Positions 28,138 to 53,302 are shown, counted from the stretch's first letter. The stretch is DNA of 64,000 nt from a virus (IMGVR_UViG_3300037132_000276:28606-92605); one strand, 5' to 3'. Notes: generated by a model from the sequence alone, not told the origin. A program made the numbers and translations.

Positions 28138-29055
28138 TTAATTTGCATTTGGTAATATCCTTGCTATATCTTTTTTGGCGGCTTCGGCTAACATCATTTG
28201 GACACTTTGCTTGGTGCTATCATATGTTTCACCTAAAATTCTCAGGGCTTCAACCTTTGGGTGGACCCATCCATCGGAATCCTCTGTCATAACCCTGAAT
28301 GTCATATATAAGCTGTGCTGCGTTTTGTTGCTCGTTTCGTTCATAGATCCAAACTTGCCAAAATCAAATTTTTCTCGGTTAATATTTGGATTGGTTTCGA
28401 ATCTTACCATATTTTTATAGATGCTGCCATCTTCCAACTCTGCGCCTTTAATATGAGTTAATTTATCGCCCCATAAATAGCCATTTTTTTGAACTCGCTT
28501 GGGGTTATTCCTTCTCAACAAGTCTGCATCTGCTATGGTCGTTGCCTGTCGTATGCTCCCCTCGTTATATTTATTAGATACAATGCTGGGCTTTAATCTT
28601 ACGGCTTCGCTGTAAACTTCTTGCGGCATTTCTCGTTTACTCTTAGCGCCCGGCGTTCCATGTTCAAAAGGAATAATCAAATATCGCTTGCCGTCTTTAC
28701 TTATCCGCACTTTATCGCTTGTCTGTAAAGCTTTTTTCATGTCAAAGAGCTGGAAACCAGACTCTAAGTACTTCGCATAATCTTTTGTGTGCTCAATTCT
28801 ATAATAAAGTGGATCGCCCTGATATGGATATTTAATCCCTTCGACTATACCGCGAGCATAACCGCCTTCCGAATGCTTGAACTTACTTGCGGCAACATTA
28901 AGCCAACTTTGCGTTACGTGATCACCAGCAACATGAATGGCTTCCTGCAGATAACTTCCATTCTTATCAAGTTCTTGTTCATAACGTCGCTGGATCTCTC
29001 TTACGAGTTCGTTTAATGCAGAATAATCAAGGTCGTAAACAATTTCATAATTCAT
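28138..29055 (-). CDS. Neck / head-tail joining protein
   Basis: YAKYLESG...FDMK, KDGKRYLIIPF, YMTFRVMTEDSDGWVHP as in Twort-like neck proteins. Confidence 0.7.
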   Translation of the reverse strand: MNYEIVYDLDYSALNELVREIQRRYEQELDKNGSYLQEAIHVAGDHVTQSWLNVAASKFKHSEGGYARGIVEGIKYPYQGDPLYYRIEHTKDYAKYLESGFQLFDMKKALQTSDKVRISKDGKRYLIIPFEHGTPGAKSKREMPQEVYSEAVRLKPSIVSNKYNEGSIRQATTIADADLLRRNNPKRVQKNGYLWGDKLTHIKGAELEDGSIYKNMVRFETNPNINREKFDFGKFGSMNETSNKTQHSLYMTFRVMTEDSDGWVHPKVEALRILGETYDSTKQSVQMMLAEAAKKDIARILPNAN

Positions 29056-32000
29056 TATTTTTTGTCCGGATCCTTGTCGGCAATGTTTTTCTTTGGATTT
29101 AAGATGGAATTAAAATCAGTCCCGCTTTCTTCTTCCGGAGAAAACTTATCTCCAAAATCTTTTTCAAATTTAGCCTCGCCTTCGGGGGTAAGTATCATAT
29201 TCTCGTCAATTAACCCATGCATACAGAGTAATCCAAGTTCAAAAAAGTCCTGTTCCGGATCCAGCTCATGATCTTCGGGGAATCCCGCCAACATTTTTAT
29301 TTTTTCGCCATCAGTCAACGTCCCATTGCCCTTATCTACATTGTCCCCTGATTTATCCGGTTTGCCTAATGGTAAAGATTTTTCAATTTTTCCAGAACCT
29401 ATTTTGTGAAATTCTTTATGAACATCGGGATGATGTATTTTCTCTCTTCCGTCAATTTTCTGATAGAATAGTTTTACACCTTCACCTAATGGAGCAGAGT
29501 TATCAAAAACGTCGAAATTGTCAAAGTCCTCTTTCAGCTGGAAAAATGCTTTGTGGGTCTGGTAATCACCGAACTCCTTTTTATATAAATCTGTCCCTAT
29601 TGATCTTCCTCCATGTTGACCCCTCGCTTTGTCCCTTTCAATTCCGCTTTTAAGTGGAATATGAATAAATTTTGCATTTATCTGAAAAGTGTCATACTTC
29701 ACGATTTCAAGTAGATCTCTAAGATTTTCCTCTCCCTTCATCGTGGTATCATAAACAACATCTTTCCCCTCTCTTACCGCCTCACGAATTAAATGTTTTG
29801 CTATTACCGAACTATCCTCATGAAGCTCCCACGGTTTTTTGTCGACCTCTTCTTTCCCGATTCCACGCTCATCGGCAATCATGTATTTAATAGCATCCGG
29901 ATCTATTACCACTTTATTTTGATTGAAAGAATGTCCCAATACCGAACTTTTGCCGCTACCGGGGAGCCCACCGGTAATATATAGCTGACCTATGCCATCA
30001 CCCGCCTCGCTAAATAGTTTTTTCTTAATCGAACTGTACTCGGGTATTGCTTCGGCTACGACCTTCAACTTTAACGAGAATTCCGTTTCTCTTAAAGCAT
30101 TCGGCTTTTTGGCACAATCCTCTGCCGCCTTAGCCAAATCCGGCGAAGCAAATTGTAATTCTTTCGGGCATGGATCGTTGTCCCCTTTTTTTATTTTAAT
30201 ACGAACGAAGAAGTTTTCACGATCAATATCGGATTTGTCCGGCATCTCCCCATCAACCGCATAACCTTTATCTTTCAATTCGCCAATAACTCTATTGATT
30301 TTATAAGGACTACTTATAGCAAACGCCCCAATTAAAGCACTATTGGGTGCCTCCTCCCCATATTTATCGGCATTTCTTCTGATTTCCTTAAATAAAGCAT
30401 CCTGTTTCTTAATTATTTTGTTGTTATTGCTAAATTCTAAATTTAAGGCATTTGCGACATCTTCAAGATCACGGAAAAACCAACTTTTTTGCCCCTTACC
30501 CAAATCAGCAAAATCCTCTGCTTTTTCATTATATCTATTATAATTTCTCATTTTCTCTAACGATTTTGCGCGTTCGGCGTTTTCTTTGGCCCGCTCCATT
30601 TCAACGGGGATTGATTGATCCTGACTTTTTTCCTCGGTTGAAATAGTAATGTTCTTATCAGAAAAATTATATTGAACTCCGCCCTCCATCGCTAAAACGG
30701 ATTGATTTTTAGGAACGTTAATTACAGAATCAAATCCATTTTTTTCTTTAAGGAATAGCGAATAATTTCCATCGCTATTTTCATTAATGAGCTGGAAAGT
30801 GCCTTCATCTAAAAGATTACCGTCGTTATCGGTTACAAAAGCTTTGTTGCCAAGCTTATCCTGCAGCATGTCATAACTTTGTGCCGGCGTTATAGTCTTC
30901 CCCTTGCTTTTTTCTTCCGGCTGATTATTATTTTGACCCCCGGATTCTTTTTTGTTGAGAAATCTCCAGTGGGCGCCTTTGCCTTTTTCGTCGCGTTTTA
31001 ATTGAAGCGTTCCGCCTTTCCCTTCTTTGGTTTGACCTTCCTTAGAATATGGTTCTTCAAATAAAGAAACTTGGGCCCCAAATGCTTTTACAAAGTTCTT
31101 AAAAATGCTTTTCATATATTCCGCCTTTTTCTCAAACACTCGCTCTGCAACTGCACTTTTCCAATTCAGACTTGCGCCGGTACCGTTTTTTATCGAAAGG
31201 CAATCAAATAAACCAATGTCTTTTATTTTCAGTTGTTCGGAGATTGAATTAAGTTTTTGTCTGAATATCACATCTTCAAAATCTTTATTTGTCATCACGA
31301 TTGAATTAACTCCGCCGCTTCTTCCGACTAACACCGCAATTTCATCAGCTGTTTCTTTTGAATTGTCAAGAGAGGAAGTGAGGTTAAACCTGCCGACAAT
31401 TGAGTTACGAGAATTCAGAGACAATACCTGTGCTTTGTCCCCTAGAGTAAATCTACCCTTATAAACAAATTCAACAATATCTTCGGGGGTATGAATATTA
31501 TTTTGAGAGATGGTGGCGTTTTTATTGAAAATTTGCCTGCTGAATCGAAAAGCTTTTAAATTTTTAGCATTTTTCCCATGTTCTGTATTTGTCAATTGTC
31601 CATGTCCCCAAGCTGAGCCATGCGGTTCGAAAAAGCCATAACTACCTTCTCGCGCATCAATTATTACCGCGGGCATCATTACAACATCTTTAGGCAGCCC
31701 ATCTTTTATCTTTAACCATATATTTTGGTCTTCATTTGATGGATCAAGATTCCCGCTTGGATGGTTATGTACGAAATGAAGCTTGGTTGTTCCAAATCTA
31801 TTAATTGCATCCCATATTTGACTAGGGGAAACCAAAGAAGAATTGAAATTTCCGGTTGAAATATGCTGAACAATTATCCCATGCTTTTCGGTCTCGTGGG
31901 CTACAAAACAATGCTCTACCGCCTCATCCTGCAGCTGATTAAAAATATAAGCAACATCATCCGCCGTTTTTATCGTTTCATGCGCTGCATAAAATTTTAG

Positions 32001-32828
32001 CTCTTTATAAGCTTTATATTTACGCTCAAAAACAGATTCCTCGCCTTCCTGTAGCGGCCGATAGCTTAATGGTAGGCTTTGCCTAATCCAATCTTTTATT
32101 TTTGGATTAGGTTTAATGACTGCCTGTTTCTTTTTATCAACCTCCAATAATTTGGCGTGCTTTTTTTTAACCGCTTCATAAAGTTCGTGACTATAATTTG
32201 CGGAATCCCCATTGTTTACATCTTCAAGATATTGCTCCATTTCATACATCGTCATTCTCGCCGCAACATCTTCCGGTTTTGTCGAAACTTCTATACTCGC
32301 CAAGCCTGCAAGGGCTGAATTCTTTTTCTGGTTAATCTTTTTTGGTTTGTGGATATTGACTTTATTTTCTTTTTTGCCAATTTCTTCAATTGCTCCTTCA
32401 ATCATATTATCAACAATCGATTTCACTCCTTCAATATCTTCATCAGTAATTTTTTCATGTTTATTTATTTTTTCAACAAATGTTTGTTTGATATGGTCGC
32501 ATATATTCCAAAGATCGTCGGCGATTCTTTTGCCATCAGCACTATGAACATTATTAAGAATTTCTTGCGCCTTTTTACTTAATCTATCAACATGTTCAGA
32601 AACCGGACTATCTGAATATTCCTTTATAATTTTTTCGTCTCTGTCTTCTTCTTTATCCGCGTTTTTCCAACGCAACTTACCGCTACCGACAATCTCCAAT
32701 TTACGTTTATCTCCTGGCGCAAACTCTTTTTCTGCTCCTGCAATCGGTTTGCCAAAAATATTAATTTGTGCGGGATCGTTGCCCTTAATGGCCTTTGAAA
32801 GAGTTACGGGTTTGCTAAATATTTTCAT
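29055..32828 (-). CDS. Polyvalent protein: RadC/JAB domain, degenerate second RadC, Zeta-toxin-like P-loop kinase
   Basis: E...HFVHNHPSGNLDPSNED (JAB); TGGLPGSGKS, IDPDAIK, HEDSSVIAK, VVYDTT, GGR (Zeta family). Confidence 0.8.
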   Translation of the reverse strand: MKIFSKPVTLSKAIKGNDPAQINIFGKPIAGAEKEFAPGDKRKLEIVGSGKLRWKNADKEEDRDEKIIKEYSDSPVSEHVDRLSKKAQEILNNVHSADGKRIADDLWNICDHIKQTFVEKINKHEKITDEDIEGVKSIVDNMIEGAIEEIGKKENKVNIHKPKKINQKKNSALAGLASIEVSTKPEDVAARMTMYEMEQYLEDVNNGDSANYSHELYEAVKKKHAKLLEVDKKKQAVIKPNPKIKDWIRQSLPLSYRPLQEGEESVFERKYKAYKELKFYAAHETIKTADDVAYIFNQLQDEAVEHCFVAHETEKHGIIVQHISTGNFNSSLVSPSQIWDAINRFGTTKLHFVHNHPSGNLDPSNEDQNIWLKIKDGLPKDVVMMPAVIIDAREGSYGFFEPHGSAWGHGQLTNTEHGKNAKNLKAFRFSRQIFNKNATISQNNIHTPEDIVEFVYKGRFTLGDKAQVLSLNSRNSIVGRFNLTSSLDNSKETADEIAVLVGRSGGVNSIVMTNKDFEDVIFRQKLNSISEQLKIKDIGLFDCLSIKNGTGASLNWKSAVAERVFEKKAEYMKSIFKNFVKAFGAQVSLFEEPYSKEGQTKEGKGGTLQLKRDEKGKGAHWRFLNKKESGGQNNNQPEEKSKGKTITPAQSYDMLQDKLGNKAFVTDNDGNLLDEGTFQLINENSDGNYSLFLKEKNGFDSVINVPKNQSVLAMEGGVQYNFSDKNITISTEEKSQDQSIPVEMERAKENAERAKSLEKMRNYNRYNEKAEDFADLGKGQKSWFFRDLEDVANALNLEFSNNNKIIKKQDALFKEIRRNADKYGEEAPNSALIGAFAISSPYKINRVIGELKDKGYAVDGEMPDKSDIDRENFFVRIKIKKGDNDPCPKELQFASPDLAKAAEDCAKKPNALRETEFSLKLKVVAEAIPEYSSIKKKLFSEAGDGIGQLYITGGLPGSGKSSVLGHSFNQNKVVIDPDAIKYMIADERGIGKEEVDKKPWELHEDSSVIAKHLIREAVREGKDVVYDTTMKGEENLRDLLEIVKYDTFQINAKFIHIPLKSGIERDKARGQHGGRSIGTDLYKKEFGDYQTHKAFFQLKEDFDNFDVFDNSAPLGEGVKLFYQKIDGREKIHHPDVHKEFHKIGSGKIEKSLPLGKPDKSGDNVDKGNGTLTDGEKIKMLAGFPEDHELDPEQDFFELGLLCMHGLIDENMILTPEGEAKFEKDFGDKFSPEEESGTDFNSILNPKKNIADKDPDKK

Positions 32829-33577: not shown

Positions 33578-34651
33578 TTATACGACTACGGCGTCAAGTC
33601 CCTTGCCGTATTTTCTCTGCAAAGACTTGATAAATTGATCTTCATCCTTTTTCAGATCTTCAACTATCTTATCGGTTTTGAAGGTTTTTGCGGTTTGAAC
33701 TCCATCTATGCTCTCGCTTTCGCTTGCATTACGTTTGCGCGGATCTATAAAATTAAGCAGCGATAAATAGGCTTTCTTTGCAACTGCGACCCTTATGCTT
33801 TCTTTTTCTATTGGATCTGCGTCCGGACGGAATAATCCGGAAGAATAGGTGACGACAAACATATTTGGAATACGCTCAAAATTACCGCCTCTCATGATTG
33901 ATATTCCCATTGCGGAAATGTTATTTATAAGCAGGGTATAAATTGCTGAAGTATCGCCGCCAGGTAATGGCAAAAATTCCAGAATCCCCATATTATTATC
34001 ATAAGTAAAATATTCTTTCCCGATATTTGCGATCTGGGCAGTTCCATACATAATCTTTATATCTATCAGCTCTATAATCGGCGGGTACCATAGCTGCATC
34101 TGCCAAAGATGCATTGAGAATCGTTCAAAATAATTATCCCGTTTTTCGACAAGGGTTCTGGGAGTAAAATATAATTCACAATCTCGCTCAAGATCTCCCT
34201 GGGCGGCCATTAAAAAGCTTTTTAATCCGGATTTGTCGGCTATATAATTATTGACCGCATCTTCATAGTCAAGATCCAGTTTACTTTTTGTGGCTAAAAT
34301 AAAATCTATAAAATATTGAACCGGTACTATCTCCGCTGTGGGAGTAAGGGAGTTTGATAATAGCTGTGCATCTTCGGGATAATAATTGTCATCTATATCG
34401 GCATCGGTCGAATAGAAAAATAATCTTATATATTGGGGGACTGTATCCGTGCTAATGGTTAATGCGGCAGTTCCATATAAATGGCTAGTGCTATCACAGG
34501 TAAGCGGGACTTCTGAAAGTGTATGATCTTGACTGTCTTTTAGTGGAATACCATCTTCGCCGATTAGCGTCACATACACATGTTTTCCACTCGCGATCGC
34601 TGTCTGATCCAGAACGATTGATTTTGATACTCCGATTAAGATTTTTTTCAT
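33578..34651 (-). CDS. Head-tail adaptor protein
   Basis: AAQGDLE, QLWYPPIIEL, IPNMFVVTYSSG, SESIDGVQ. Confidence 0.65.
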   Translation of the reverse strand: MKKILIGVSKSIVLDQTAIASGKHVYVTLIGEDGIPLKDSQDHTLSEVPLTCDSTSHLYGTAALTISTDTVPQYIRLFFYSTDADIDDNYYPEDAQLLSNSLTPTAEIVPVQYFIDFILATKSKLDLDYEDAVNNYIADKSGLKSFLMAAQGDLERDCELYFTPRTLVEKRDNYFERFSMHLWQMQLWYPPIIELIDIKIMYGTAQIANIGKEYFTYDNNMGILEFLPLPGGDTSAIYTLLINNISAMGISIMRGGNFERIPNMFVVTYSSGLFRPDADPIEKESIRVAVAKKAYLSLLNFIDPRKRNASESESIDGVQTAKTFKTDKIVEDLKKDEDQFIKSLQRKYGKGLDAVVV

Positions 34652-35187: not shown

Positions 35188-35657
35188 GCGGAGAGGACTA
35201 TCCAGGTTACTACCGAGACAATTATTGTTGCTGAATAAAGTGCAGCGGTGAGCACTCGCATCCGATCGCCGTCTGGGGCAATAATATTGCCAGTCTTTTT
35301 CGTAAAATCAATTGTGGTAAATAGCCATTGCATTAACCATGCGAGCAAACTTATGATTGTCCCTAAGAATGCAGCAAGAACAATTATTTTTATCATTTTT
35401 ACAATGATATTGTCGCTTTGTATCTGGGTTGCTTCACTTTGAAGTTTGGCAACATCCTCGGTGTTTTTATAATCGCCGGTCTTCTCGTCATATTGCTGAC
35501 TTATATCGTTGAATTTTTTTGTTAATTCCTCGGTAACCTTTTTTTCGTGCGGTAAAAGCACAACTGTTATTAAGGTGAAAACAACCCCAATTATGATGAG
35601 TGCTGTTACATTTTTTGTAATGTGAACTTTCGCTTTATTCCAAATATTTGTAAACAT
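35184..35657 (-). CDS. Holin-like multi-TM protein
   Basis: Three hydrophobic helices; overlaps the endolysin start. Confidence 0.55.
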   Translation of the reverse strand: MFTNIWNKAKVHITKNVTALIIIGVVFTLITVVLLPHEKKVTEELTKKFNDISQQYDEKTGDYKNTEDVAKLQSEATQIQSDNIIVKMIKIIVLAAFLGTIISLLAWLMQWLFTTIDFTKKTGNIIAPDGDRMRVLTAALYSATIIVSVVTWIVLSA

Positions 35658-36323: not shown

Positions 36324-37745
36324 TTAGCTGTTTAATATGCTTCCAACATTTTTATAGATTACTATTTTATTTCCGTTAAATACCTTCGGGGTGAAATAGA
36401 TCTTCTGTAGCCAACGGACTGCATCAGAAATTGTTGCAAGAGGCAACCGGCTCATGGTACCAAGTTGGTCAACCCTTAACACTTGGTCAAAATCCCAATC
36501 GATAACCATCACATTGGTTGTGCCCGGAACGGTTGAACCGTCGTCTATCTTTGTTGTAGAGGCGGCGGCAAAGCTCTTGAAATATTTATAATCGGCAATG
36601 GTTGTGCCTGCTGTAAGTTTGCGGTAAATGTCAAATTTTTCAGCCGCTCTATTATCCGGCGAACCATTATCGGATATTGTAAATACAACCTTTTTGCTTG
36701 CTGCAACTACTACGCCCGTAATCTCGAAAGCTGCCTGAGCACCATATTTATTTACAGGAATTATTGCATAGTCGTATGTCGCGGCTGGGAGCAAACTGCC
36801 AACCAGGTTATCTGTTGTGGCTGTACAAACGCTTGAGCTTAATGCGTTTGGTGCGCGATCGCTCATACTTGCGAAGGTTGTTCCCGCTTTATTCAATTTC
36901 GGGTGCGGCCGTCCAAGATAAGTTTCGCCTCTATGACGTAAGAAAACCGAGGTATCAATATTACCGCCACCGGAACCAATTTCTAACTTTTTGGCTTTAA
37001 CATAAATTTCGGCAACACTGGCTCCATTAACAAAATATGTCTTATTCGCAATCAATTGATTGACGTAATCTGTATAAGCTTGGTTGCCCATCCAGACTTT
37101 TAGGTTCATAGAATTACCATAATTGTCTGCAATTATTCTGCCCGCGTTATTAAAATCTTCGAGTTGCATGCATTTTCCCTGTTTGTCAATAATGTTTTCA
37201 TTGGGATTTTTCATGCGTTTTATCGCTTGCGGGATAATTCCATTGGGGTCCGTAGAAAGCAATGTTGCATCACCGTTAACAGAAACAACTTCCAGTTTTC
37301 TAAGCATTGCAATTGTTTTCATGCGGGTTACGGTGGCTACGAGATCACCATTGATAACGTCATTTGCATTTGCGAAGTAAGGAACTTTACCAACTGCTCC
37401 CACTAGCTTTACCTGCTCAAAATCACGTTTCAAGTCTTCGTCGTACTCTTCCGGAAGATCGCCGCTGGAATAGGAACTTGCATCTCCTAATTCATTCAGA
37501 ATACTGAATTCTTCAACTGCTGAAGTTGCTTTCCCTTTCTTTATTGCTTTCCAAAAAGCGCAGGAATTTTCATTTGCTTCAACGATTTTCAACGTTGAAT
37601 CCAAGCTTTCTTTTCTCAATGCAGAGAACCCGGTTTGATCCGTGGTTCCCATGCTGTAATCCATGTCTAACGCTTTAGCAAGTTCACGTTCCTTTGCAGG
37701 GGCCATGCTAAAAGCATCTTCGCCGAAAAACATCATCTCATCCAT
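36324..37745 (-). CDS. Major capsid protein (SPO1/Twort-like HK97 fold with inserted Ig-like domain)
   Basis: LAKALDMDY...GFSALRKESLD, KATSAVEEF, IIDKQG, YDYAIIPVN...FDIYRK, MSRLPLA, IVIYKNV. Confidence 0.88.
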   Translation of the reverse strand: MDEMMFFGEDAFSMAPAKERELAKALDMDYSMGTTDQTGFSALRKESLDSTLKIVEANENSCAFWKAIKKGKATSAVEEFSILNELGDASSYSSGDLPEEYDEDLKRDFEQVKLVGAVGKVPYFANANDVINGDLVATVTRMKTIAMLRKLEVVSVNGDATLLSTDPNGIIPQAIKRMKNPNENIIDKQGKCMQLEDFNNAGRIIADNYGNSMNLKVWMGNQAYTDYVNQLIANKTYFVNGASVAEIYVKAKKLEIGSGGGNIDTSVFLRHRGETYLGRPHPKLNKAGTTFASMSDRAPNALSSSVCTATTDNLVGSLLPAATYDYAIIPVNKYGAQAAFEITGVVVAASKKVVFTISDNGSPDNRAAEKFDIYRKLTAGTTIADYKYFKSFAAASTTKIDDGSTVPGTTNVMVIDWDFDQVLRVDQLGTMSRLPLATISDAVRWLQKIYFTPKVFNGNKIVIYKNVGSILNS

Positions 37746-40543: not shown

Positions 40544-40996
40544 TTATTCTTCCTCTATTTCTCTTCCTGAATATTGGTCTTGATCAATGCTCTGATTTGG
40601 GACATAGACAAACTCTTCATTGTCGCCAAGTTCAATATAATGGACTTCATCGGGTATTTGTCTTGAATCAAATCTTTCCTGTTGATAGGCTAAGGCTGCC
40701 ATAAAATTTAACAGATCATCCTTAAAATCATATTCGGTTCTGACTTCTTCATTGAAATAATCGAAAGGGCCCGCTTGTCGTTCATACTCTGCTAATTGCT
40801 CGGGGGCGTATTTTTTCAAAACCAAATAAAGATTTTCCCAATATGGACCGGTCTGCTTATAAAAATTTCTTCCCTGGTCAACTTCCAAAAGATTCAACAA
40901 ATATAATTTTGTCCGGTCTTTTAGAAATGCAATTGGTGTTAATCCATCATTGTTTTCTTCAAAATTCTTTTGTAAATATTCTACATCGTATTTCAT
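40544..40996 (-). CDS. Hypothetical acidic protein
   Basis: 150-aa ORF with GAGG RBS, directly after the DarB-like gene. Confidence 0.6.
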   Translation of the reverse strand: MKYDVEYLQKNFEENNDGLTPIAFLKDRTKLYLLNLLEVDQGRNFYKQTGPYWENLYLVLKKYAPEQLAEYERQAGPFDYFNEEVRTEYDFKDDLLNFMAALAYQQERFDSRQIPDEVHYIELGDNEEFVYVPNQSIDQDQYSGREIEEE

Positions 40997-44000: not shown

Positions 44001-47000
44001 ATTCTCTATTGTATTTATTTTCAATTTCATCACGATTAGCTGCGGTCTCAGATAAATAGGTCTTAAATCGTGTTTCAATTTCTTTTGCTCTTTTTTGAAC
44101 GTCAACCGGCGCACTGCCAACGCTGAATCCGTTAAGAATATCAAGCATAACCATGCTGATATGGTTCTTCTCTCCTCGGAAATGATCATGTACTCCATAT
44201 TCATAATTCTTTTTTTCTTCTTTGTCCAGTGCTCCTTTGGCGATGTGCATTGTGTAAACGTCGTTTAATGCGCGGTTCTCAAAGGTAAATAATTTTCGTT
44301 TATCGTTATAAATTATTTCTCCCTTAAATGAATCTCCAAGCTTTTCTTTTAGATAATCATTAACATAGTTAATACTAAAAAACCCAGCGGTACAATCGGA
44401 GATATCAACCGGCAAATTTTCCAGCGTTCTAATTTCCGCACGTCTTTTAAGCTCATAAAGTTGCTCGTCAAGCTTTTTGTTTTCTGCAACTAATACTTCT
44501 TTCTCTTCGTCGGTTAGCTTAGAATTTTGCAGATCTGCTTTGTTCTGTCCAATTCTATGTTCCCAATAATCAAGTTTGTTGTAAACTTCTCCGGAACAAA
44601 CTTCATTTATGGTATTGAATCCCCCATTTTCATCAATGAAAACATCTTCTTTACTAAACAATAATTTCTTAAACTCATTTAGGGTGTAATTTCCACCCTG
44701 ACTAAAACTTCCTTTTACCGATTCAGCTGAATTAGACAGGCCGTTATCTCTAAGCATTGAAATTACTTCAATCAAATCCGTATCATTATAAGTATTTACG
44801 TTTGATGATTTAGGATTATAAATATTAGAAAAGGCTTTTGGATCGGTGAAAAGCTTACTTAGGTTACCCTGGGCGTCAAAAGCACTTACCAGGTAAAGCA
44901 TGGGGTTATCCGGGGACTTGCCCATTTGGGCGTTTAACTTCACATCGCTTGATGGATGTCCATATCGGGACTTAAAGTCATCTAATAACATTGCAAGCTT
45001 TTGCGCTTCCCGCTGTGCATCTGCGGTAGAAACGGTTTCATAATCGAAAAATGTGCCATTTGTATTATTATACTGTTTCTCAATTCCGCGCTGCATTTTT
45101 GTCTGGAATTCTTTTATTGCCAGTCCTAATAAAGCGGCTCGTTTTAACATTTCACTTTTTTGTATATTTGATGATGTGTAGTATTCAAGTTCTCCCTCAA
45201 GTCCGATATCAAGTGCTTTTAACTGATCCCGAGAAAGTTCCAATTGAACCGATACATCATTTCTCAATTCCCTTAGTTCATAAATTGTTTTGATGCCAAG
45301 TAATTTCTGTAATTCTTCCGGAAGGTAAATTTCTTTTTCTGCCCCCGCTTCTAATCTTTCCCATCGATGATTTTCATTGAGTTTATACATTCTTCCGTTT
45401 CTGGTAATAACATCACCAACATGAAGCTCTCTTTCTTCCTGAACTTTTAGCCCGATATCTCCGAGTATTGAATAATCCGGCTCAAAATTCTTAATCAGAT
45501 CCCCGGTTTCTTCAAGTTCTTCTGACGTTAAATCGCCTTTCCAGAACTTCCTCCCCCATTGGCCGGTAGTCTCTTCGCCATGAACATATTCGGGATTTTT
45601 GGCAAAGAATGTTCCGTTTATAAATTCTGGATCCAGGATCATAGTGTCGTATAATTTTGAAAGATCATCACCTTCCAATTTGTTTAAGGATTCAATTACC
45701 GCTTCAGGTCGTTTTCTAAAAAACAAAATATCTGTGGTCACTTCTGCATTTGCTTTCTTAAAAACTCCGCTCGGCATTCTAATGGCGCCCAAAAAGTCCG
45801 CTTTCTTATTCAGCATCAATCTATAATCTTGAATCTGATTATCCATTATTCCGGTGGGTACTATTATAGATGCAAGTCCGTTTTCTGCCAAGTCATCAAT
45901 GGCTCTGTCAAGGAAATACATTTCATGCAGATGATATGCTTTAGCTTTCTCGGCATCAAGTGCTGCGGTCGCTCCTCGAGGTCCGAATGGAACGTTGCCA
46001 ATACAAGCCTTAAACTCTTTATCGAAGTTCTCTGTGTTAAACTTTTCAAATGGCATGTGGTAAACATCGTGCTCGGGGAATAAGATTGCGGCTATTCTTG
46101 AACTTGTTTCATCATATTCAACTCCGGTAATAAGTGCATTTTCAGGTGCTCCATGTAAGAATATTCCCGTGGCACAACTCGGTTCGAGTACCGGACCGCC
46201 CTTGAATCCAAGTTTTTCCAGCATGTCCCATTGGAATTTAGCAACCCAATCCGGAGTATAATATTCATTTAACGATATCTCATCAGTGCCGCCTTTGCCG
46301 CTATATTGGGCTAAAATCCGTTTATCTTCGGGTGTAAATTCATCATTTTTCTTTGAAGCTAATAATTCTTTTACTTTTCTATTAATCTCAATTCGTTGTT
46401 TTCTAATTTTAGAATCTAGGTGAGAAACCCCAAAGTTTTCAATAAGATTATCCTTATCCTTTTTTTCTGGTCGGGGTTTTTCGGAAGATGTAAAAAGATC
46501 TTCTATCGGTTCTGATTTTGGTTTTTCTTCTTTGCTTAAGCTATCCATTAATTTCTGACCGATAGCAATTCTCTTATCTGGGTCTGTTTCTGAATCTAAT
46601 TCATTTAGATAGTCCTTTAGTTTTATTCCTTTTGCAGTAGCTTGATCGTAAAGATATTTTTCGTTTAATCCTAAAGATTGCGCAAGCTCTCCGGCATCCA
46701 TAGCGTTTGTAGCTGGCAATGACTTTGCATTAGCAAAGCCGCCCTCTTTAGAAATAAGTTTTTTGGCTTCTGCAAACGTTGGCTTTTCTTTTTGCAGTGC
46801 TTCCCCTTTCGGCAATACCTCGGTTTCCTTTCCCGGTTTATCAAATAGATTTATGTCCTGTCCAAACATTTTCATTTTTGATTTTGGTGCGGATTCTGCC
46901 GGCTTGCCAACTTCGGCGGCTGCTTCGGGATCTTCTCTCTTGAAAAGTCTTCTTACGTTGGGGTTTTTCTTGCTTCTTTTTATTTCATAGACCTTACCGT

Positions 47001-47574
47001 CTTTAAGTCTTGTTTCACCTTCAACAATATCCTTTGGATTATCAAACATGCTCAACTGAGCGCCTAATGCTTTTATCAAAACTCCAAAACTTTTAATAAT
47101 CCCGGGTTTGTTTTTTGTTGCAAGCGCTTTTTTCTTAAACTCTTCAAAACTCATCGCGGTAATCTTTCCAAGATATTTATGACTGTCGTAATGGGCTAAA
47201 AATGCATCTCGCGCATAATCAAGACTGTCAAAACCCAATAATATTTTATCTTCGTCGAATTTGCCGTTTTCCGGATCTTCTTGGTGAATAATAAAAACTT
47301 TATCGCTCTCTTTAATTGGACCCAAATAAACGTCAAGCTCTTCGCCGTCTACGCCCATAGTCCCGCGAATAAAACCATAATCGTGAAAAATTTTGGTTTC
47401 CCATTCTTCGCCGTCATTATCAACTCCGCGCCTTATAGATCCCTTTTTGTTTTCAATGGTAATGTCCAGGCCTCGAAAAGAGGTTCTGCCCTGCGGCTTA
47501 AACGTTTCGTCTTTCTTAATTTTATCATCAAGATTTATCTGCTGACTTTTGCCAAAGAATTTAATAGCGGCCAT
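41023..47574 (-). CDS. DarB-like polyvalent protein: inorganic-pyrophosphatase-like domain, N6-adenine MTase, SNF2/SF2 helicase
   Basis: ITIENKKGSIRRG...DYGFIRGT.GVDGEELDVY..FDEDKILLGF; EYYTP, VLEPSCATGIF, IGNVPFG; AHGVGLGKT, ADECH, TATPISNS, GEGLN, QGNGRVIRQGN. Confidence 0.88.
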   Translation of the reverse strand: MAAIKFFGKSQQINLDDKIKKDETFKPQGRTSFRGLDITIENKKGSIRRGVDNDGEEWETKIFHDYGFIRGTMGVDGEELDVYLGPIKESDKVFIIHQEDPENGKFDEDKILLGFDSLDYARDAFLAHYDSHKYLGKITAMSFEEFKKKALATKNKPGIIKSFGVLIKALGAQLSMFDNPKDIVEGETRLKDGKVYEIKRSKKNPNVRRLFKREDPEAAAEVGKPAESAPKSKMKMFGQDINLFDKPGKETEVLPKGEALQKEKPTFAEAKKLISKEGGFANAKSLPATNAMDAGELAQSLGLNEKYLYDQATAKGIKLKDYLNELDSETDPDKRIAIGQKLMDSLSKEEKPKSEPIEDLFTSSEKPRPEKKDKDNLIENFGVSHLDSKIRKQRIEINRKVKELLASKKNDEFTPEDKRILAQYSGKGGTDEISLNEYYTPDWVAKFQWDMLEKLGFKGGPVLEPSCATGIFLHGAPENALITGVEYDETSSRIAAILFPEHDVYHMPFEKFNTENFDKEFKACIGNVPFGPRGATAALDAEKAKAYHLHEMYFLDRAIDDLAENGLASIIVPTGIMDNQIQDYRLMLNKKADFLGAIRMPSGVFKKANAEVTTDILFFRKRPEAVIESLNKLEGDDLSKLYDTMILDPEFINGTFFAKNPEYVHGEETTGQWGRKFWKGDLTSEELEETGDLIKNFEPDYSILGDIGLKVQEERELHVGDVITRNGRMYKLNENHRWERLEAGAEKEIYLPEELQKLLGIKTIYELRELRNDVSVQLELSRDQLKALDIGLEGELEYYTSSNIQKSEMLKRAALLGLAIKEFQTKMQRGIEKQYNNTNGTFFDYETVSTADAQREAQKLAMLLDDFKSRYGHPSSDVKLNAQMGKSPDNPMLYLVSAFDAQGNLSKLFTDPKAFSNIYNPKSSNVNTYNDTDLIEVISMLRDNGLSNSAESVKGSFSQGGNYTLNEFKKLLFSKEDVFIDENGGFNTINEVCSGEVYNKLDYWEHRIGQNKADLQNSKLTDEEKEVLVAENKKLDEQLYELKRRAEIRTLENLPVDISDCTAGFFSINYVNDYLKEKLGDSFKGEIIYNDKRKLFTFENRALNDVYTMHIAKGALDKEEKKNYEYGVHDHFRGEKNHISMVMLDILNGFSVGSAPVDVQKRAKEIETRFKTYLSETAANRDEIENKYNREYNNFIQKSYDGSVIEGLGKLDYDKIVATDKEGNSIKVRDQIKSYCYAGVRRMYEQGKGLVAHGVGLGKTIEALLLGALSKETGRCKKPTYIVPKSVAGNWNAEIKKWFKADTKTLIVGSHRKEDKNGAPVLDTKGREQWVDDDANEKKVKLSRIINEDFDFIVMTRDFYNDIRMSPKTVENMIEELVGKFYVATGDESDKKAEKKREAIKFKLANEFLGNIKRDKFGKIAKTDEIYFENLGLDMIIADECHSNKNLIESVLYSDIKYLNVKHSQRAMDFYFKSKIIRNENNDKGVYGMTATPISNSPMEVFNMLLPIAEKEFERMGIKNIDDFVKKFAEVDGVPTMDAAAKITNKNVFTKFKNLNLLRKTFFKYADYKTADMVGAIVHFPKENPNVIFCEASKDQKQIMKGLKLRLLQHEFKSQDLDTLVKDGFITEKEKEELKVYGEVHKQKVKQLSYLAKGDADPVDYYFNILDDMKKATADLEWYSNRKSPWADPIPEGMDYAATPKVQELLNRTITKYKDGEKQLIFATNITLHNKLKDQLITAGIKPDEILIVNGGTVKSSDARLKASEDFNSGRYKVVIGNYETMGEGLNFNIGGSAVHHLQPPWNGMAIDQGNGRVIRQGNILDSVNTFYYLTKGTIDAFFNQKILDKRGFVNAILTGKEDVMENDEGGVSADEMQIALAEDPEQARKLLQRKNEAFVRLMKERKVKENYSKLDDLFTQKTRLGRMKDKESLAYKSLTEEIDRTKNELNSSEDFEHKDILTADSRPIILPKHNAVIKVGSVVNYGSEQSIITGYSHSTGKITMKSFDRYDVKTREGDIRSFENNYNNFITPSKEDAETMFKKLIMDHKTSNIKVIEALPDEICQRYRKQIIRNLEDGYSHSVIARKSDGSYVGTDVDFATRHKYDIVLPQDSQDYFNIVDKAVKTSDSDFDLYQSEYAHKSTDKAEEAAERFFGENWENKIKYLKQKSKGDATTESEDLEFESAA

Positions 47575-47909: not shown

Positions 47910-47930
47910 TGAACGATTCTTATTAAATTA

Positions 47931-49733: not shown

Positions 49734-49774
49734 TTTATGCTCCTTTCTTATTGATGGATGTTTCTATTATATAC

Positions 49775-52700
49775 TTACTTATATATGTTATGTTTAATTT
49801 TATTTATAACGCTTTTCTTACTCGGGAATAATTGCAACTGAGAAGTATTTATAGATTTTTCAACATATTTTTTCAATAATTTATAATAATCTTTTTCTCC
49901 ATGAAGATGAACATCTGTAATCCATTTAAAGAACTCGCGTTTATTCATAGGCATTTTAATGCCTTCTTTTTCAAGTCGCTTTTGAAGTTCGTTGTAAAGA
50001 TTTACATGCTCGCTCTCTTCTTTAATTCCTAAATCTTCCATTTTCTTAGTAAAGGCTTTATATAATTTCTTTCCGGAAATGTTTAACCGACTGACAATGC
50101 TTTTATTAATCCCCTTCTCATATTTTGGCTTAAATGCTCCGTTAAAAGCTTCGTCTGGGGAAAGCCCATCACTAAACATATCCGGTTCCATAGCCATTCG
50201 ATATTGTCGAATCTTATCTTTCATTTCATTTGGCTTCGTACCCGCAAATAGATCGAATAAGGCAAGTACTTTCTTATCCGCTTTCAATGGTTCAAAAGCA
50301 TCGTTTGCCGCTTGACTTATAAAATCATCAGGACTCTTAAAGTTATCTTTCATCACTTCATATTTGCTAAGAATTTTTACCGCCTCTGATATTTCGGGAA
50401 CGATATCGCCCGGCTTACCTTTCAGCGCAAAAATATCGCCCAGGGCTTTTGTAACTCCTTCTCTGGCAGCGTTATTAATTTTTTCAAAATGCTGACTTGA
50501 ATCTCCTAGAATCGATTGAGTTAATAGCTGTTTAACTTTATCTTTATTTGAAGCATTGAGCTTGCCGGTATTCATATCAATATATAAATGTCTTTCGTTC
50601 TCGGGAATAATTTTACTCTTTATCAGCTCCTTCACTAAGTCCGGCCCAACGTCTTCCAAATAATCGCTTATGCTGGAATAATCACCTTTCGCGCCGCTGA
50701 ATAGATCCGATATTTTATTAAAAGTCTTATCATCAATTCGGGTAGCCATTCCCTTTGCGGCCTCACTTTCTTCAAGTGCAAGCTTCTGATCTTGATTGCT
50801 TATAGATCCAAGCCTCTGGGCTTCTTCATTGCTTAGATTTGTTCTTCTTACCAATACCGGATTTTTCATCTTTGAAACTTCATCCGGGCTGAAGCCCAAT
50901 CTCTCGGCATGCTTTATAAGGTCACTCTTATATTTTTCCAACCCCAATTTATAATGCTCCAAAACACCTACCGCCCGGCCATTACCGGCAATTACATTAT
51001 AATCCTGGTTAACAATCGGTGCGCCGTTCTGCGCGGTTTTATCATCGCTTAGGAAGTCAAAATTCGGTTTGTTAGCAATTGTATTTATCTGATTTATTGA
51101 TTGTTGCTTGCTCCTATCTCTGTTTTGTGCTGCCCCAATAGTATAATTCGGATTTGGTTCTCCTCCCGCAAAATTACTGGGTGCAAGCTCGTCGCCTTCT
51201 ACTATTTCATAATAACCGCTCGCCGAATCTTTATCGTCGGTGCCGAAGTTTATTTTTGTAGCCGGAAGATTGCTTACAATTCCCTTGCTTGCCCGAGTGG
51301 GTTCGAAGATGTTCTTGCCGTTAATTGTTTTCAGTTCATCAATGGTTTTACTTTCTCCCCTCCCATTATTATCATAGAATATTTTATCCTTTGTAATATC
51401 ATTTATTGGGAAAGTTTCATTACCAAGTTTCAATTTATTTGTTGGTCCGTCAATCTCGGTGTCACCGTCAAAGGTTTTTACAAGTTTGAATTTTCTCCCC
51501 TCTATATCAACTTCCTTTTTTGCCCTGAATGCATTTTCGGTTAGCTTATATCCGCGGTCTTCAAGCTGCTTCGAAAAATCTTTATATTCTTTACCGTTAA
51601 GTTTTTCCTTTACTGTTTTTTGCTTCTGCTCATTTTCCGCTTTAATCTTCTCCGCGGTTTGTTTTGCTTGCTGGGCTTTTCCCCATCTGCCGCCAAACTG
51701 TTTATGATTGAATCTGGCAAGCTCTTCCTCGGTATATTCGGGCTTAATCTCAATTTTATCATGTTTCTGCTTTACGGTGATCCCGCCGTACGGGCCTTCA
51801 TTCGGTACAATTTCTTCTCCGGCTTTTTCCTGTTCATACTCTTCACGCTTGAATTTCTTATAATCATTTTGGGATAAGAATAAACCGGTTTCGTGTGTCT
51901 TCGGATCTTCAAGCGAATAGCCATCTTCGGTAATATTTCTAACAAAATATTTTTTATCATCAAAGACCAGCGGAAAGTCTTTCTGCCCATTTACCATAAT
52001 GTCGGTTTCGCCGGTTTCGGGATTATACTGCCAGGTAATGTTATCCGTTTCATTATCTCCGGTTTTAATAAACTTTCTGGCGGTTAACTCGTCAACCCGT
52101 CCAAAGTCTGCCTGCTTTGCTTCGTCCCAAAATTTCTTGTATCCTGGCTGTTTTTCATAATCAAGGTTATAGCTATAATCCTCATCGGCATATCCTTGAT
52201 AAACGTGTGAATATTTATCCTTCATTGACTGTTTATATTTTTTCGGGTCAATATCCGAGGCCCGGGAAAGCGGCTGTTCAATCTCGATAACCTTCATCCG
52301 GTTCGTTTTGAGATCTTGAATAAGTGCAAGTGCGCCGGTCAACTTCAATACTTTGGATGGGCGCCCCTCATCATCGATCTGTGCGCCTTCATAATACCCT
52401 TTCTGCTGTTCAAGTTTTTGCAGGTGTTCATTTTTATTCACGGTTATCATCTTGCCTTCAACGTTAACCGCGAGGATATTATCAGAGATTTCTTTTATCT
52501 GTCCGGCTTTCCCGCCGATTCTGATCATTTCACCTGGCTTAAAATCTACATTATATTGTTTGGCTGCGGTTTGCTCGGGTACCGTTTCGCCGCCCTTATC
52601 TCTCCATTCCCGTTTACCATTCGGAAGTTCATATAAATAAATATACCCCTCTCCGCTTGGGTTTGGTTTTTTCTCAACATATTTGTGATCCGGCTTCATC

Positions 52701-53302
52701 CCGCCTTTAGCATTCCAGGCCGTGCCGCCCGTACCGGTTTTGCTGATGTCAAAAATCTTGGCAGTGGATTTGAATAATTTTAAGGATATTGGTTTTGTCT
52801 CAATGTCAACTGATTTTAGAAAAGGTTGCTTAAAAAGAGGTTCTTCCACCCGGGCTTTGAATAACTTTGTGCCTATGGATTTGTGAAATACCGAATAATT
52901 TACATTATGCTTTATAAAATCCGGATTGGTTATGGTCTCTCTTAGAAAGTCAGTCATATTGTCTACAAACACTTTCCCGATTGGTGTTTCAAAAGTTCCA
53001 GAACTTCTATATGAAATTTGCGGTAACCTACTTTCTGGCAAACTAATTTCTGTCGATTTATGTAAATAGGCATTTAGTAGATGCCTGTCTGCTCTTACAA
53101 TCTTAACCCCTTTTTTAAGTATTACAAAATCGTCTCCGCATTCCTTTACCTCACCAAAAGAAGTTATTAATCCTTTTTGCAAAAGATTAATGGGCTTATC
53201 GCAAATAATATTGTCGGCGGCGTCACGGGTTATTATTCGCGCACCTTCAATACTCTTGGCAATAAATCCACCTTCGTAATCTGGCAATTTTTGGATAAGC
53301 AT
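49775..53302 (-). CDS. Polyvalent protein: KOW/SH3-like repeats, DdrB-like ParB domain, C-terminal DUF5661-like domain
   Basis: YEIVE..EL.PS...AQNRDR...GAPIV...VIAGNGR...NPVLVRR; LGIKEESEH...ITDVHL..EKDYYKLL. Confidence 0.7.
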   Translation of the reverse strand: MLIQKLPDYEGGFIAKSIEGARIITRDAADNIICDKPINLLQKGLITSFGEVKECGDDFVILKKGVKIVRADRHLLNAYLHKSTEISLPESRLPQISYRSSGTFETPIGKVFVDNMTDFLRETITNPDFIKHNVNYSVFHKSIGTKLFKARVEEPLFKQPFLKSVDIETKPISLKLFKSTAKIFDISKTGTGGTAWNAKGGMKPDHKYVEKKPNPSGEGYIYLYELPNGKREWRDKGGETVPEQTAAKQYNVDFKPGEMIRIGGKAGQIKEISDNILAVNVEGKMITVNKNEHLQKLEQQKGYYEGAQIDDEGRPSKVLKLTGALALIQDLKTNRMKVIEIEQPLSRASDIDPKKYKQSMKDKYSHVYQGYADEDYSYNLDYEKQPGYKKFWDEAKQADFGRVDELTARKFIKTGDNETDNITWQYNPETGETDIMVNGQKDFPLVFDDKKYFVRNITEDGYSLEDPKTHETGLFLSQNDYKKFKREEYEQEKAGEEIVPNEGPYGGITVKQKHDKIEIKPEYTEEELARFNHKQFGGRWGKAQQAKQTAEKIKAENEQKQKTVKEKLNGKEYKDFSKQLEDRGYKLTENAFRAKKEVDIEGRKFKLVKTFDGDTEIDGPTNKLKLGNETFPINDITKDKIFYDNNGRGESKTIDELKTINGKNIFEPTRASKGIVSNLPATKINFGTDDKDSASGYYEIVEGDELAPSNFAGGEPNPNYTIGAAQNRDRSKQQSINQINTIANKPNFDFLSDDKTAQNGAPIVNQDYNVIAGNGRAVGVLEHYKLGLEKYKSDLIKHAERLGFSPDEVSKMKNPVLVRRTNLSNEEAQRLGSISNQDQKLALEESEAAKGMATRIDDKTFNKISDLFSGAKGDYSSISDYLEDVGPDLVKELIKSKIIPENERHLYIDMNTGKLNASNKDKVKQLLTQSILGDSSQHFEKINNAAREGVTKALGDIFALKGKPGDIVPEISEAVKILSKYEVMKDNFKSPDDFISQAANDAFEPLKADKKVLALFDLFAGTKPNEMKDKIRQYRMAMEPDMFSDGLSPDEAFNGAFKPKYEKGINKSIVSRLNISGKKLYKAFTKKMEDLGIKEESEHVNLYNELQKRLEKEGIKMPMNKREFFKWITDVHLHGEKDYYKLLKKYVEKSINTSQLQLFPSKKSVINKIKHNIYK

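Follow-up and report, generated by a model that had tools for sequence, protein, structure and literature searches.

The three giant proteins encoded in the head block of this uncultured phage are related to the Dar cargo of phage P1, a set of injected anti-restriction proteins, and the reading that we favour, at a probability of roughly 0.55, is that they are Dar-type cargo whose leaders are trimmed and whose units are separated by the head protease inside the head. The argument is built on homology, synteny, motif statistics, conservation of a cassette, module junctions and a gene fission in a relative, from which we infer packaging, cleavage and the action of a retained tag. The window analysed is a 64,000-nucleotide stretch of a 92.6 kb IMG/VR phage record that is 72% complete; the head module is SPO1-like and the host is probably of the Ignavibacteria type. 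The giants P0001, P0002 and P0003 are encoded between the portal/MuF, protease-capsid and neck genes (Table 1).

Table 1. Features of the head block and of the giants, in window coordinates; residue numbers refer to the proteins and a slash within a sequence marks a predicted cut.
Feature	Position	Strand	Content or basis
Portal	55017-56912	(-)	PHROG portal 1e-13; upstream of cargo genes
MuF/head-morphogenesis-like protein	53947-55017	(-)	Weak head-morphogenesis matches, 8e-5; upstream of cargo genes
P0003, 1175 aa	49775..53302	(-)	N-terminal beta domains, Lys-rich linker, type II hairpin cassette, DdrB-type ParB core, helical region, C-terminal cassette remnant
P0003 Lys-rich stretch, residues 139-180 (FHKS, LFKA, FLKS, LFKS)	52763..52888	(-)	AF2 low confidence
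P0003 joint, residues 1065-1084 (INK/SI ... LYK/AF)	50051..50110	(-)	Conservation
P0003 C-terminal cassette remnant, residues 1147-1175 (VEK/SINTSQLQLFPSKKS...)	49778..49864	(-)	Alignment A5
P0003 C-terminal tag VEKSINTSQLQLF	49826-49864	(-)	
P0002, 2183 aa	41023..47574	(-)	Leader, InPase, cassette, DarB-like N6-MTase + SNF2 helicase
P0002 N-terminal leader, residues 1-10 (MAAIKFFGK/S)	47545..47574	(-)	Leader form recurs in homologues
P0002 cassette, residues 159-213 (IIK/S FGVLIK/A LGAQLSMF, three-strand meander, end SKKNPNVRRLF)	46936..47100	(-)	Alignments A3, A4
P0002 tag LIKALGAQLSMF	47044-47079	(-)	
Ulx-like protein	40544..40996	(-)	phrog_1629 Ulx-like anti-restriction 2.6e-10; directly 3' of DarB-like gene
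P0005, prohead protease-scaffold fusion, 480 aa	37835..39277	(-)	PHROG head maturation protease 4.4e-19
Major capsid protein, 473 aa	36324-37745	(-)	
Capsid maturation site, residues 22-26 (L-A-K/A-L)	37668..37682	(-)	Predicted from homologue conservation
P0001, 1257 aa	29055..32828	(-)	Leader + cassette, RadC-JAB, cassette, Zeta-like kinase, acidic C-terminal module
P0001 N-terminal leader + cassette, residues 1-62 (MKIFSKPVTLSK/AIKGNDPAQINIF...GKLRWKNAD)	32643..32828	(-)	Cassette HMM 37 bits
P0001 N-terminal tag LSKAIKGNDPAQINIF	32754-32801	(-)	
P0001 internal cassette, residues 571-634 (YMK/SIFKNFVK/AFGAQVSLF...GKGAHWRF)	30927..31118	(-)	Cassette HMM 74.8 bits
P0001 internal tag FVKAFGAQVSLF	31059-31094	(-)	
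P0001 post-Zeta site, residues 1148-1151 (IEK/S)	29376..29387	(-)	Conservation; ahead of acidic tail

P0002 matches InPase (Pfam, 6.6e-43), SNF2-rel and Helicase_C and belongs with the DarB-like antirestriction proteins of phrog_10089 (4.3e-139), and P0001 matches RadC (6.9e-13, residues 289-378) and Zeta_toxin (6.9e-12, residues 949-1110), with module breakpoints derived by comparison with relatives L005, L010 and L011. P0003, whose architecture also rests on a family alignment (A5), matches ddrB-ParB (PF18763, 1.9e-25, residues 693-821) and aligns with P1 DdrB at 35% over about 146 aa (tblastn). The domain calls of the preliminary description (InPase, DarB-like MTase/SNF2 helicase, RadC-JAB, Zeta and ddrB-ParB) all hold. 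Polyvalent proteins are recognised by at least two biochemically disparate domains per chain, taken from the polyvalent repertoire, and by a phage late or packaging, or else a conjugation, gene context; the giants combine InPase, MTase and SNF2 helicase, RadC-JAB and Zeta, and ddrB-ParB, and their genes occupy such a position. The same domains, with late context and predicted packaging, appear in the available passages of Iyer, Burroughs, Anand, de Souza and Aravind 2017 (PMC5512222), who propose that such chains cleave themselves through MPTase or C-terminal assemblin-like domains; those passages mention neither linkers, nor a clamp, nor cutting in trans by a separate prohead protease, and the shared leader/cut-site cassette is therefore absent from them.

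As in P1, the gene for the DarB-like MTase-helicase is followed by a Ulx-like gene, a DdrB-type ParB is present, and the genes lie beside portal and protease. These comparisons support the assignment of the giants to P1 Dar-type polyvalent proteins inside a head-gene block, and because of their DarB-, Ulx- and DdrB-like content packaging in the head is likely by analogy. According to the available passages of PMC9024508 and PMC5512222, P1 Dar proteins are found inside the head by mass spectrometry, a capsid signal lies at the N-terminus of DarB, and processing occurs in DarA and DdrB. The present system differs from P1 in its SPO1-like head, in its extra InPase, JAB and Zeta units and in its common cassette, whereas the P1 Dar N-termini lack a consensus in the passages of PMC9024508. 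In P1 the proteins with a DarA-N domain, DarA and Hdf, nucleate Dar incorporation, and the system protects from type I restriction. No DarA/Hdf/DdrA homologue was found by PHROG and Pfam among about 30 neighbouring proteins of this 72% complete record, and the missing DarA/Hdf near the head block counts against the favoured reading. It is very improbable that the giants are instead late-expressed cytoplasmic enzymes with the cassette as a flexible linker or recombination joint; the weak enrichment of the loose motif described below would suit such enzymes, but their genes lie in the portal-to-neck block, the DarB-, Ulx- and DdrB-like proteins are homologous to proven P1 head proteins, PHROGs with InPase carry the annotation minor head protein or virion structural protein, and cassette copies inside one phage share only about 27% mutual identity and therefore are not DNA-level recombination repeats.

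The protease P0005 is 30-37% identical to SPO1-type proteases. The capsid site, proposed in the preliminary description as LAK/AL, has invariant Lys and Leu in 48 homologues ([LIM]-x-K-[AS]-L, with K and L in 48/48, A in 35 and S in 13) below a variable upstream propeptide, and the SPO1 capsid has a matching site, ALNK/ALEAG. In alignment, the first residue of the deposited mature capsid chain of PDB 9row (439 aa) is the one that follows the Lys corresponding to phi812 capsid K24, and PDB 5lii (463 aa) has the sequence VVK24-S25. Capsid and protease are homologous to those of SPO1/Twort-like phages (Herelleviridae). Both head modules have the conserved L-x-K/[AS]-L site where the capsid propeptide ends and many copies of x-K-S along the scaffold, and in both the protease contains a copy of the capsid N-arm. 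Here, unlike there, a single gene encodes protease and scaffold as a fusion, the host clade is another and Dar-like cargo genes are interleaved. The motif h-x-K-[SA] (h, hydrophobic), said to occur more than a dozen times in the protease/scaffold, is found there 15 times vs 2.8 expected (5-fold, z 7.5), with scaffold z of 5-11 in every related locus and a mild excess in the capsid (5 vs 1.9). Cleavage between Lys and Ser or Ala is very likely, from these sequences, the specificity of this SPO1-type prohead protease.

The loose motif is near chance in two of the giants, P0002 (11 vs 8.7) and P0001 (5 vs 5.4), which weighs against the favoured reading, and only P0003 is enriched (11 vs 4.8, p 0.005). 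Pooled over the giants, its raw frequency is weak (27 vs 18.9, p 0.04); since raw enrichment is nil in two of three giants, the argument from more than a dozen clustered sites was overstated. VPKS, YFKS and FKKA of P0002 and IAKS of P0003, the last in a predicted strand, fall in folded or conserved domains, and the MNKS of the portal is kept only in the 78% relative and is absent from those at 49-54%; many of the sites listed, these included, look like chance. For the strict motif, with a hydrophobic P2', the pooled count in the giants is 15 vs 4.85, but tail proteins also show it at about 2-fold over shuffles, a further point against our reading. The composite h-x-K-[SA]-(1-9)-Q-[LIVM]-x-[LIMF]-F occurs four times in the giants vs 0.011 expected (20,000 shuffles), and the rest of the window has no copy.

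Each enzyme unit of the giants opens with one common cassette of ~55 residues, ordered as leader, K/A, FGxQhxhF and a beta-meander that ends in SKKNPxVRRW. The leader is short, hydrophobic or basic and ends in h-x-K/[AS]-h, and at internal joints it is flanked by such a site on both sides (K/S-IFKNFVK/A); F-G-x-Q-h-x-h-F follows, and last a small basic hairpin ending S-K-K-N-P-x-V-R-R-W/L. By sequence, the first element is likely a cut site for the head protease after lysine and the second looks like a sliding-clamp docking motif. The leaders of P0001 and P0002, 8-12 residues long, end at K/S or K/A; homologue leaders such as MKTQIKIFGKS and MKIFGITIAKS match that of P0002, and the N-terminal cassette of P0001 is kept in L005, L010 and L011 (MIITLFGK/SIKFGKNPNQIDMF...). 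Invariant positions in alignments A3 and A4 are K161, Q173, F177, S201, K203, N204, P205, V207 and R209 (P0002 numbering). The C-terminal remnant of P0003, in which K1162 and K1163 are invariant, aligns with homologue cassettes, ...PSKKNPxVKRWQ, that are followed by further modules, and the L036 homologue has IYKAFGRQLSLF at this position. The shared tags lie where the preliminary description had placed them, with LSKAIKGNDPAQINIF one base off. The conserved K-A of the cassette might belong to a binding element and remain uncut.

Position and conservation carry the case for the cassette. In each of the three giant families it occurs N-terminally and at joints between modules, at 45-60% identity; it is present in 51 protein clusters (search of 1.84 billion representatives), where it adjoins InPase, LPD1 and ART-PolyVal domains, and is uncatalogued, with no Pfam family. 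In related loci h-x-K-[SA] lies within residues 2-26 of 13/19 giants vs 45/310 other proteins (Fisher 5e-7, on counts that are not independent because the giants are partly homologous). Homology to relatives resumes at the internal cassette of P0001, and in L009 the P0001 units are separate genes, each with a cassette at its start, including a 440-aa gene whose Met1 aligns to M572 of P0001. The L005 DarB homologue is without InPase and starts with leader and tag. At the post-Zeta joint L005, L010, L011 and P0073 keep K-S-L, with another h-x-K-[AS]-[LI] after it, and P0067 has a full cassette there. In P0003 the Lys-rich stretch is replaced in the L036 homologue, the paired sites of the joint at 1065-1084 are present in all five homologues, and homology stops at 1084-1090, beyond which the C-terminal modules differ. 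These data support the view that Lys-Ser/Ala sites and a common tag mark N-termini and recombination or fusion joints in three giant families. In AF2 models the predicted sites and tag would sit in linkers of pLDDT<50: residues 1-23 and 155-182 of P0002 are below 50, with strands at 188-212, and residues 154-206 of P0003 are at 23-26, which is weak evidence of disorder because that model is poor (mean pLDDT 50).

The cassette could instead be an address for capsid loading or ejection only, its h-x-K-A-F-G being part of a peptide that docks on the scaffold, the portal or the inside of the capsid, and the resemblance to a protease site being coincidental or due to docking on the protease/scaffold fusion, with the giants left uncut as P1 DarB apparently is; we regard this as possible but doubtful. 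The P1 virion proteome lists DarB at 251 kDa, the mass predicted for the whole protein, and the available passages of PMC9024508 do not mention its processing, which is also evidence against the favoured reading. Every cargo protein, the small ones of L009 included, has the cassette at its N-terminus, a position that mirrors the N-terminal 30-residue capsid signal of P1 DarB and the T4 CTS (available passages of PMC9024508), internal copies are explicable as relics of gene fusion, and the C-terminal copy of P0003 precedes nothing. Against an address alone, internal copies are equally conserved and bear two tandem Lys-Ser/Ala sites, h-x-K-[SA]-h sites are kept even where a joint has no full cassette (post-Zeta, P0003 1065/1080), and P2' of capsid and cassette agree in the one divergent clade examined, of high GC (LEK/AV on the capsid, MRK/AVG on the cassette). 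Cutting of the giants by the prohead protease is, on these sequence patterns, plausible. Head-internal proteins cut by the head protease, some at several sites, are known from T4 (CTS/gp21; IPI-III, Alt) and from the ejection proteins of phiKZ and SPN3US, which share the short N-terminal leader to a protease site; unlike the T4 type, the predicted cut here is after Lys (h-x-K/[AS]) and not Glu, the peptide that is conserved is found on the downstream side of the cut and would stay, and the cassette is repeated at internal module joints.

We think it rather unlikely, though compatible with upstream cleavage, that Q-h-x-h-F is a genuine beta-clamp-binding motif by which injected units dock on host DnaN with the hairpin on DNA, concentrating the MTase-helicase, ParB-like protein, pyrophosphatase and other units there. 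The copies in the window (QLSMF, QVSLF, QINIF, QLQLF) and in homologues (among them QISMF, QLGMF, QLSLF, QIDMF) fit the Dalrymple consensus QL[SD]LF or Q-h-x-[LM]-F, with four Q-h-x-[LM]-F copies in the giants. Like known clamp motifs they lie at termini or in low-confidence linkers, with pLDDT<50 around the copy in P0002; no cassette columns are better conserved than Q and F, and since the predicted cut sites are upstream the products would keep the tag. Two relatives have a stand-alone DNA MTase with QLGLF or QFNLF at its end, and Mu MuC is a known clamp-using phage protein (PMC12867686). Unlike ordinary clamp motifs, however, the peptide is part of a longer K-A-F-G-x-Q...hairpin cassette whose conserved K-A-F-G has no role in clamp binding, and Q-h-x-h-F is conserved in the low-GC clade whereas high-GC cassettes keep the K-A site and SKKNPxVRRWQ hairpin and lack QxxLF, so that clamp binding would hardly be a universal function of the cassette. 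The cassette is confined to head-proximal cargo and is not on replication proteins, and the sole QLSLF in the helicase of this phage is not kept in homologues. No phage-encoded DnaN-like domain was found.

In the mechanism we propose, the three giants would enter the prohead and travel out with the DNA. The SPO1-type prohead protease would cut the capsid propeptide and shred the scaffold after Lys in h-x-K/[AS]-h context, and the same protease would most likely remove leaders and split units within the head. Predicted products are InPase and MTase-helicase from P0002, a JAB unit, a Zeta-kinase unit and an acidic tail from P0001, and, from P0003, the ParB core, a piece N-terminal to it and a short C-terminal piece (1083-1149) with the terminal cassette remnant; every product would retain, at the N-terminus created by the cut, a QxxLF peptide and the hairpin. 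The modular cargo system of the preliminary description is partly upheld, by comparison, in its Dar-type kinship, protease specificity and joint positions. The tag may serve in clamp docking, capsid loading or ejection. It is unlikely, though conceivable, that injected effectors are made as polyproteins from which the head protease releases enzymes that each carry an N-terminal clamp-binding peptide and a DNA-binding hairpin and use the host clamp as a tool-belt; if this is true, anti-defence enzymes would be gathered on the incoming DNA by the host sliding clamp.

The record comprises 92.6 kb with a completeness estimate of 72%, and the window is its final 64 kb; homologues of its capsid protein occur in metagenomes and in MAGs named Ignavibacteria. 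A single minus-strand morphogenesis block contains all three giant polyvalent proteins, P0001, P0002 and P0003 (table). Distant homology links the capsid protein and protease residues 1-200 to their counterparts in SPO1-like Herelleviridae. Amid the head-neck genes, the phage-lysozyme-domain protein and a neighbouring 157-aa protein with two TM segments (weak SLATT_6 match, 7e-5, below the cut-off) form a lysis-type pair. Upstream of the portal region lie a PAPS-reductase-like protein (phrog_424, 4e-41) and two proteins whose resemblance to DNA methyltransferases, an SPPY motif and an FSGAGG motif, was read from their N-termini.

Positions and arrangement of the features discussed (↓, predicted cut; h, hydrophobic)
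Feature	Position	Strand	Description
Morphogenesis block	56912 down to about 24900	-
Block, start		-	portal, MuF-like protein, P0003 (1175 aa), two unknown proteins
Block, middle		-	P0002 (2183 aa), Ulx-like protein, three small proteins, protease-scaffold fusion, major capsid protein
Block, end		-	small proteins, lysozyme-domain protein, 357-aa and 244-aa proteins, P0001 (1257 aa), neck proteins, sheath
Lysozyme-domain protein and 157-aa protein	34648-35657	-	signal-peptide-like N-terminus on the former
PAPS-reductase-like protein, then two methyltransferase-like proteins	58892-63360	-
Neck/tail-proximal protein, 312 aa	26939-27877	-	start ...EVIAKQFGNQLDILW
Paralogous stretch, early region	G000:C1:27540-27635	-	about 1 kb before the window start
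Capsid N-arm, residues 22-52	37590-37682		LAKA-LDMDYSMGTTDQTGFSALRKESLD
N-arm copy in protease/scaffold, residues 170-200	38678-38770		LIKS-LDMGYGMSPDTQTGFAAFRKESLD
Phage SF2 helicase	genome 20767-22383		QLSLF
P0001 family, N-terminus			MIITLFGK↓SIKFGKNPNQIDMF
P0001 family, joint			NK↓SIFKNLFK↓AFGKQISMF
P0002 family, after InPase			LLK↓AFGVMLK↓AFGTQLGMF
P0003 family, in relative L036			IYK↓AFGRQLSLF
Second cassette type in P0003	52607-52690		residues 205-232 (cassette at 205-225); after a disordered Lys-rich stretch; h-x-K-A not immediately before
P0001 unit as separate gene	L009:13852-14574		240 aa
P0001 unit as separate gene	L009:15269-16591		440 aa
Stand-alone DNA methyltransferase	L012:1091-2704		C-terminus QLGLFDIAVNQ
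Its 40% homologue	L011:2-502		C-terminus QFNLFIKTEAA

Pfam and PHROGs upheld the domains assigned to the giants in the preliminary description. P0002 joins an InPase (residues 20-149) to a DarB-like N6-MTase/SNF2 helicase (phrog_10089, 4.3e-139), P0001 carries a RadC-type JAB domain (289-378) and a Zeta-toxin-like kinase (949-1110), and P0003 contains a DdrB-type ParB domain (693-821) and matches P1 DdrB by tblastn. A 32-residue stretch in the early region is 59% identical to P0001 residues 1189-1220, part of an acidic C-terminal module, and is confirmed as a paralogous stretch upstream of the window. The Ulx-like gene directly follows P0002, a darB-ulx order shared with P1, in which the pair adjoins portal and protease. 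In P1, as described in PMC9024508 and PMC5512222, mass spectrometry places the Dar proteins in the head; DarB bears a capsid signal at its N-terminus, and both DarA and DdrB undergo proteolytic processing. Because these P1 homologues are head components, homology and position make a well-founded case that the three giants would likewise be packaged into heads. A capsid signal common to the P1 Dar proteins was sought by the authors and not found (PMC9024508), and in our comparison the N-termini of P1 DarB, DdrB and DarA resemble neither the leader nor the cassette described below.

The feature that unites the giants is a composite of a putative cleavage site and a tag, which occurs four times in them as against 0.011 in shuffled sequences and not at all elsewhere in the window. 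The same element stands at the same places in homologues, at 45-60% identity. It belongs to a longer cassette, of which 13 copies align over about 60 columns: a short leader, then h-x-K-A-[FL]-G-x-Q-h-x-h-F, a spacer of 4-10 residues and G-[EQ]-T-[KR]-x-x-G-x-x-h-x-h ... S-K-K-N-P-x-V-R-R-[WL], the last being a basic hairpin. A profile search of 1.84 billion representatives returned 51 clusters at E<=1e-3 (18 at <=1e-10). Most are proteins 900-2760 aa long that have one to five copies, placed N-terminally or at joints; in the examples scanned, a copy comes immediately after InPase, LPD1 or ART-PolyVal domains. No Pfam model matched it at E up to 10, and term searches of the polyvalent-protein paper (PMC5512222) turned up neither linkers nor the clamp nor trans action of the prohead protease. 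In the 10 kb on either side of the capsid gene, only the closer clade (L002-L012) was found to have the cassette, and the loci L013-L030 were not. High-GC cassettes keep h-x-K-A-h-G and SKKNPxVRRWQ and are missing QxxLF. A DNA-pattern scan of IMG/VR for SKKNPxVRRWQ gave five loci, four of them real; the fifth (L050/G011) is a chance match in a frame containing stops. The start of the 312-aa neck/tail-proximal protein is tag-like, with K-Q and L-W at the corresponding positions, and scores only 5 bits with the cassette HMM.

More distant giants have leaders of roughly 20 residues ending in [LM]-[DE]-K↓[AS]. Those of distant phages with SPO1-like heads (L022-L030) also bear a second cassette type, [LM]-x-K-A ... 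K-Y-h-[KR]-R-h-P-x-P-x-G-x-G-Y-x-Y-x-Y, again at N-termini and joints and preceded by [LM]-x-K-A in 16/16 cases; P0003 also contains it. Across the related loci, 13 of 19 giants have the cut motif somewhere in residues 2-26, as against 45 of 310 other proteins (Fisher 5e-7, which overstates independence as the giants are partly related); many of the 45 are capsids and proteases.

Several observations bear on what the prohead protease would recognize. The N-terminal 15-45 residues of the capsid protein vary in length and sequence among 48 homologues (33-81% identity) and the junction is fixed: L (40), I (7) or M (1), any residue, K (48), A (35) or S (13), and L (48). SPO1 has ALNK↓ALEAG in its capsid protein and PLDK↓SLEAGY in its protease, and its scaffold is rich in x-K-S. 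The phi812 capsid protein in PDB 5lii, of 463 aa, reads ...VVK24-S25-FQTGY, and residue 2 of the 439-aa "major capsid protein" chain in PDB 9row aligns one column past S25. Since 463 minus 24 is 439, the 9row chain begins right after the Lys, indirect evidence that its depositors know the mature N-terminus. Our literature search found no statement of a Lys↓Ser cut site in SPO1-like phages, and the site rests here on conservation and PDB chain length. The protease/scaffold of the window has 15 h-x-K-[SA] motifs against 2.8 expected (z 7.5), the fusion or the separate protease and scaffold genes reach z 5-11 in every related locus, and in a divergent relative of high GC content the capsid protein shows LEK↓AV and a scaffold-like protein has four sites against 0.6. 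The protease family is thus very likely specific for Lys↓Ser/Ala flanked as in h-x-K↓[AS]-h. Directly after a Lys↓Ser site, the window protease also carries a near-copy of the capsid N-arm, and SPO1 gp3.2 and gp6.1 likewise have an N-arm copy after the site.

The preliminary description had claimed that h-x-K-[SA] recurs through the protease/scaffold, the giants and the portal. The claim stands for the strongly enriched protease/scaffold but only weakly for the giants, in which the loose motif occurs 11 times against 8.7 expected in P0002, 5 against 5.4 in P0001 and 11 against 4.8 in P0003 (p 0.005), or 27 against 18.9 pooled (p 0.04). With a hydrophobic P2' the pooled giants have 15 against 4.85, and tail proteins are also 2-fold over shuffles (8 against 4.0). 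Several of the listed sites fall inside folded, conserved domains, and MNKS in the portal is kept, among relatives, by the closest one alone. How often the motif occurs in the giants is therefore a weak argument for cut sites; the strong argument for those predicted sites is position and conservation.

BLAST breakpoints among the giants fall together with the site-plus-tag elements. Relatives of P0001 share residues 1-60 and 558/573-1257 and differ in the middle, and relatives of P0003 share 1-1084/1090 and diverge just past the conserved pair INK↓SI ... LYK↓AF. At the IEK↓S site that follows the Zeta domain, the P0001 family keeps K↓SL and a second h-x-K↓[AS]-[LI], with a full cassette in one cluster. 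The DarB homologue of L005 is without InPase and starts with leader plus tag, and in L009 the P0001 units are two separate genes, each headed by a cassette, with Met1 of the second aligned to P0001 M572, an arrangement of gene fission or fusion at the cassette. The breakpoints and these two loci argue that internal cassettes are the N-terminal leaders of units since fused, as read from alignments. In an AlphaFold2 model of P0002 (residues 1-330, seven sequences), the leader (1-23) is disordered, the InPase domain (24-155) is folded at pLDDT 65-89, residues 155-182, containing both Lys sites and QLSMF, fall below pLDDT 50, and three short strands (188-212, pLDDT about 60) are followed by disorder to 291. 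For P0003 the model is poor, averaging pLDDT 50, with 154-206 and 1149-1175 at 23-30.

We consider it slightly better than an even chance (roughly 55%) that the giants are Dar-type cargo polyproteins loaded into the head and that the prohead protease separates their units and trims their leaders at the cassette Lys sites. In the main rival explanation, the giants are not cut at all, and the cassette as a whole would be an address peptide only. If the protease does cut at these sites, the products would retain QxxLF and the hairpin at their N-termini, because both lie downstream of the cut, and this retention suggests that they act once cutting is done. They may serve in retention or ejection with DNA, in docking to DNA, or in docking to the sliding clamp of the host. 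As to the last of these, QxxLF is a candidate clamp motif in that it matches the consensus exactly, sits in flexible segments and has conserved Q and F; however, some of the cassette family lack it, K-A-F-G is conserved though clamp binding has no need for it, and four homologues do not conserve the QLSLF of the phage SF2 helicase, considered as independent support. As a possible receptor of the tag, a clamp or mini-clamp encoded by the phage was sought: the record has no DnaN-like domain, and 10 unknown head-region proteins had no Pfam match. Clamp-motif-like peptides also occur outside the cassette, at the C-termini of a stand-alone DNA methyltransferase just upstream of a DarB-like gene and of its homologue. 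The initial interpretation of packaged polyproteins is thus partly supported, by the Dar-type homology and by sites and tags at termini and joints, and its argument from motif frequency is weak.

Dar-type polyvalent cargo is known; what is new is a shared, uncatalogued cassette of leader, putative cut site and tag. Polyvalent proteins are widespread. The cassette is compact and portable, marks every cargo unit and is exchanged with units between phages. As it couples a predicted protease site with a peptide that would be retained, it offers a testable grammar of cargo loading and release, lets use of the host sliding clamp by injected effectors be directly tested, and may serve to tag foreign proteins for packaging into SPO1-like heads.
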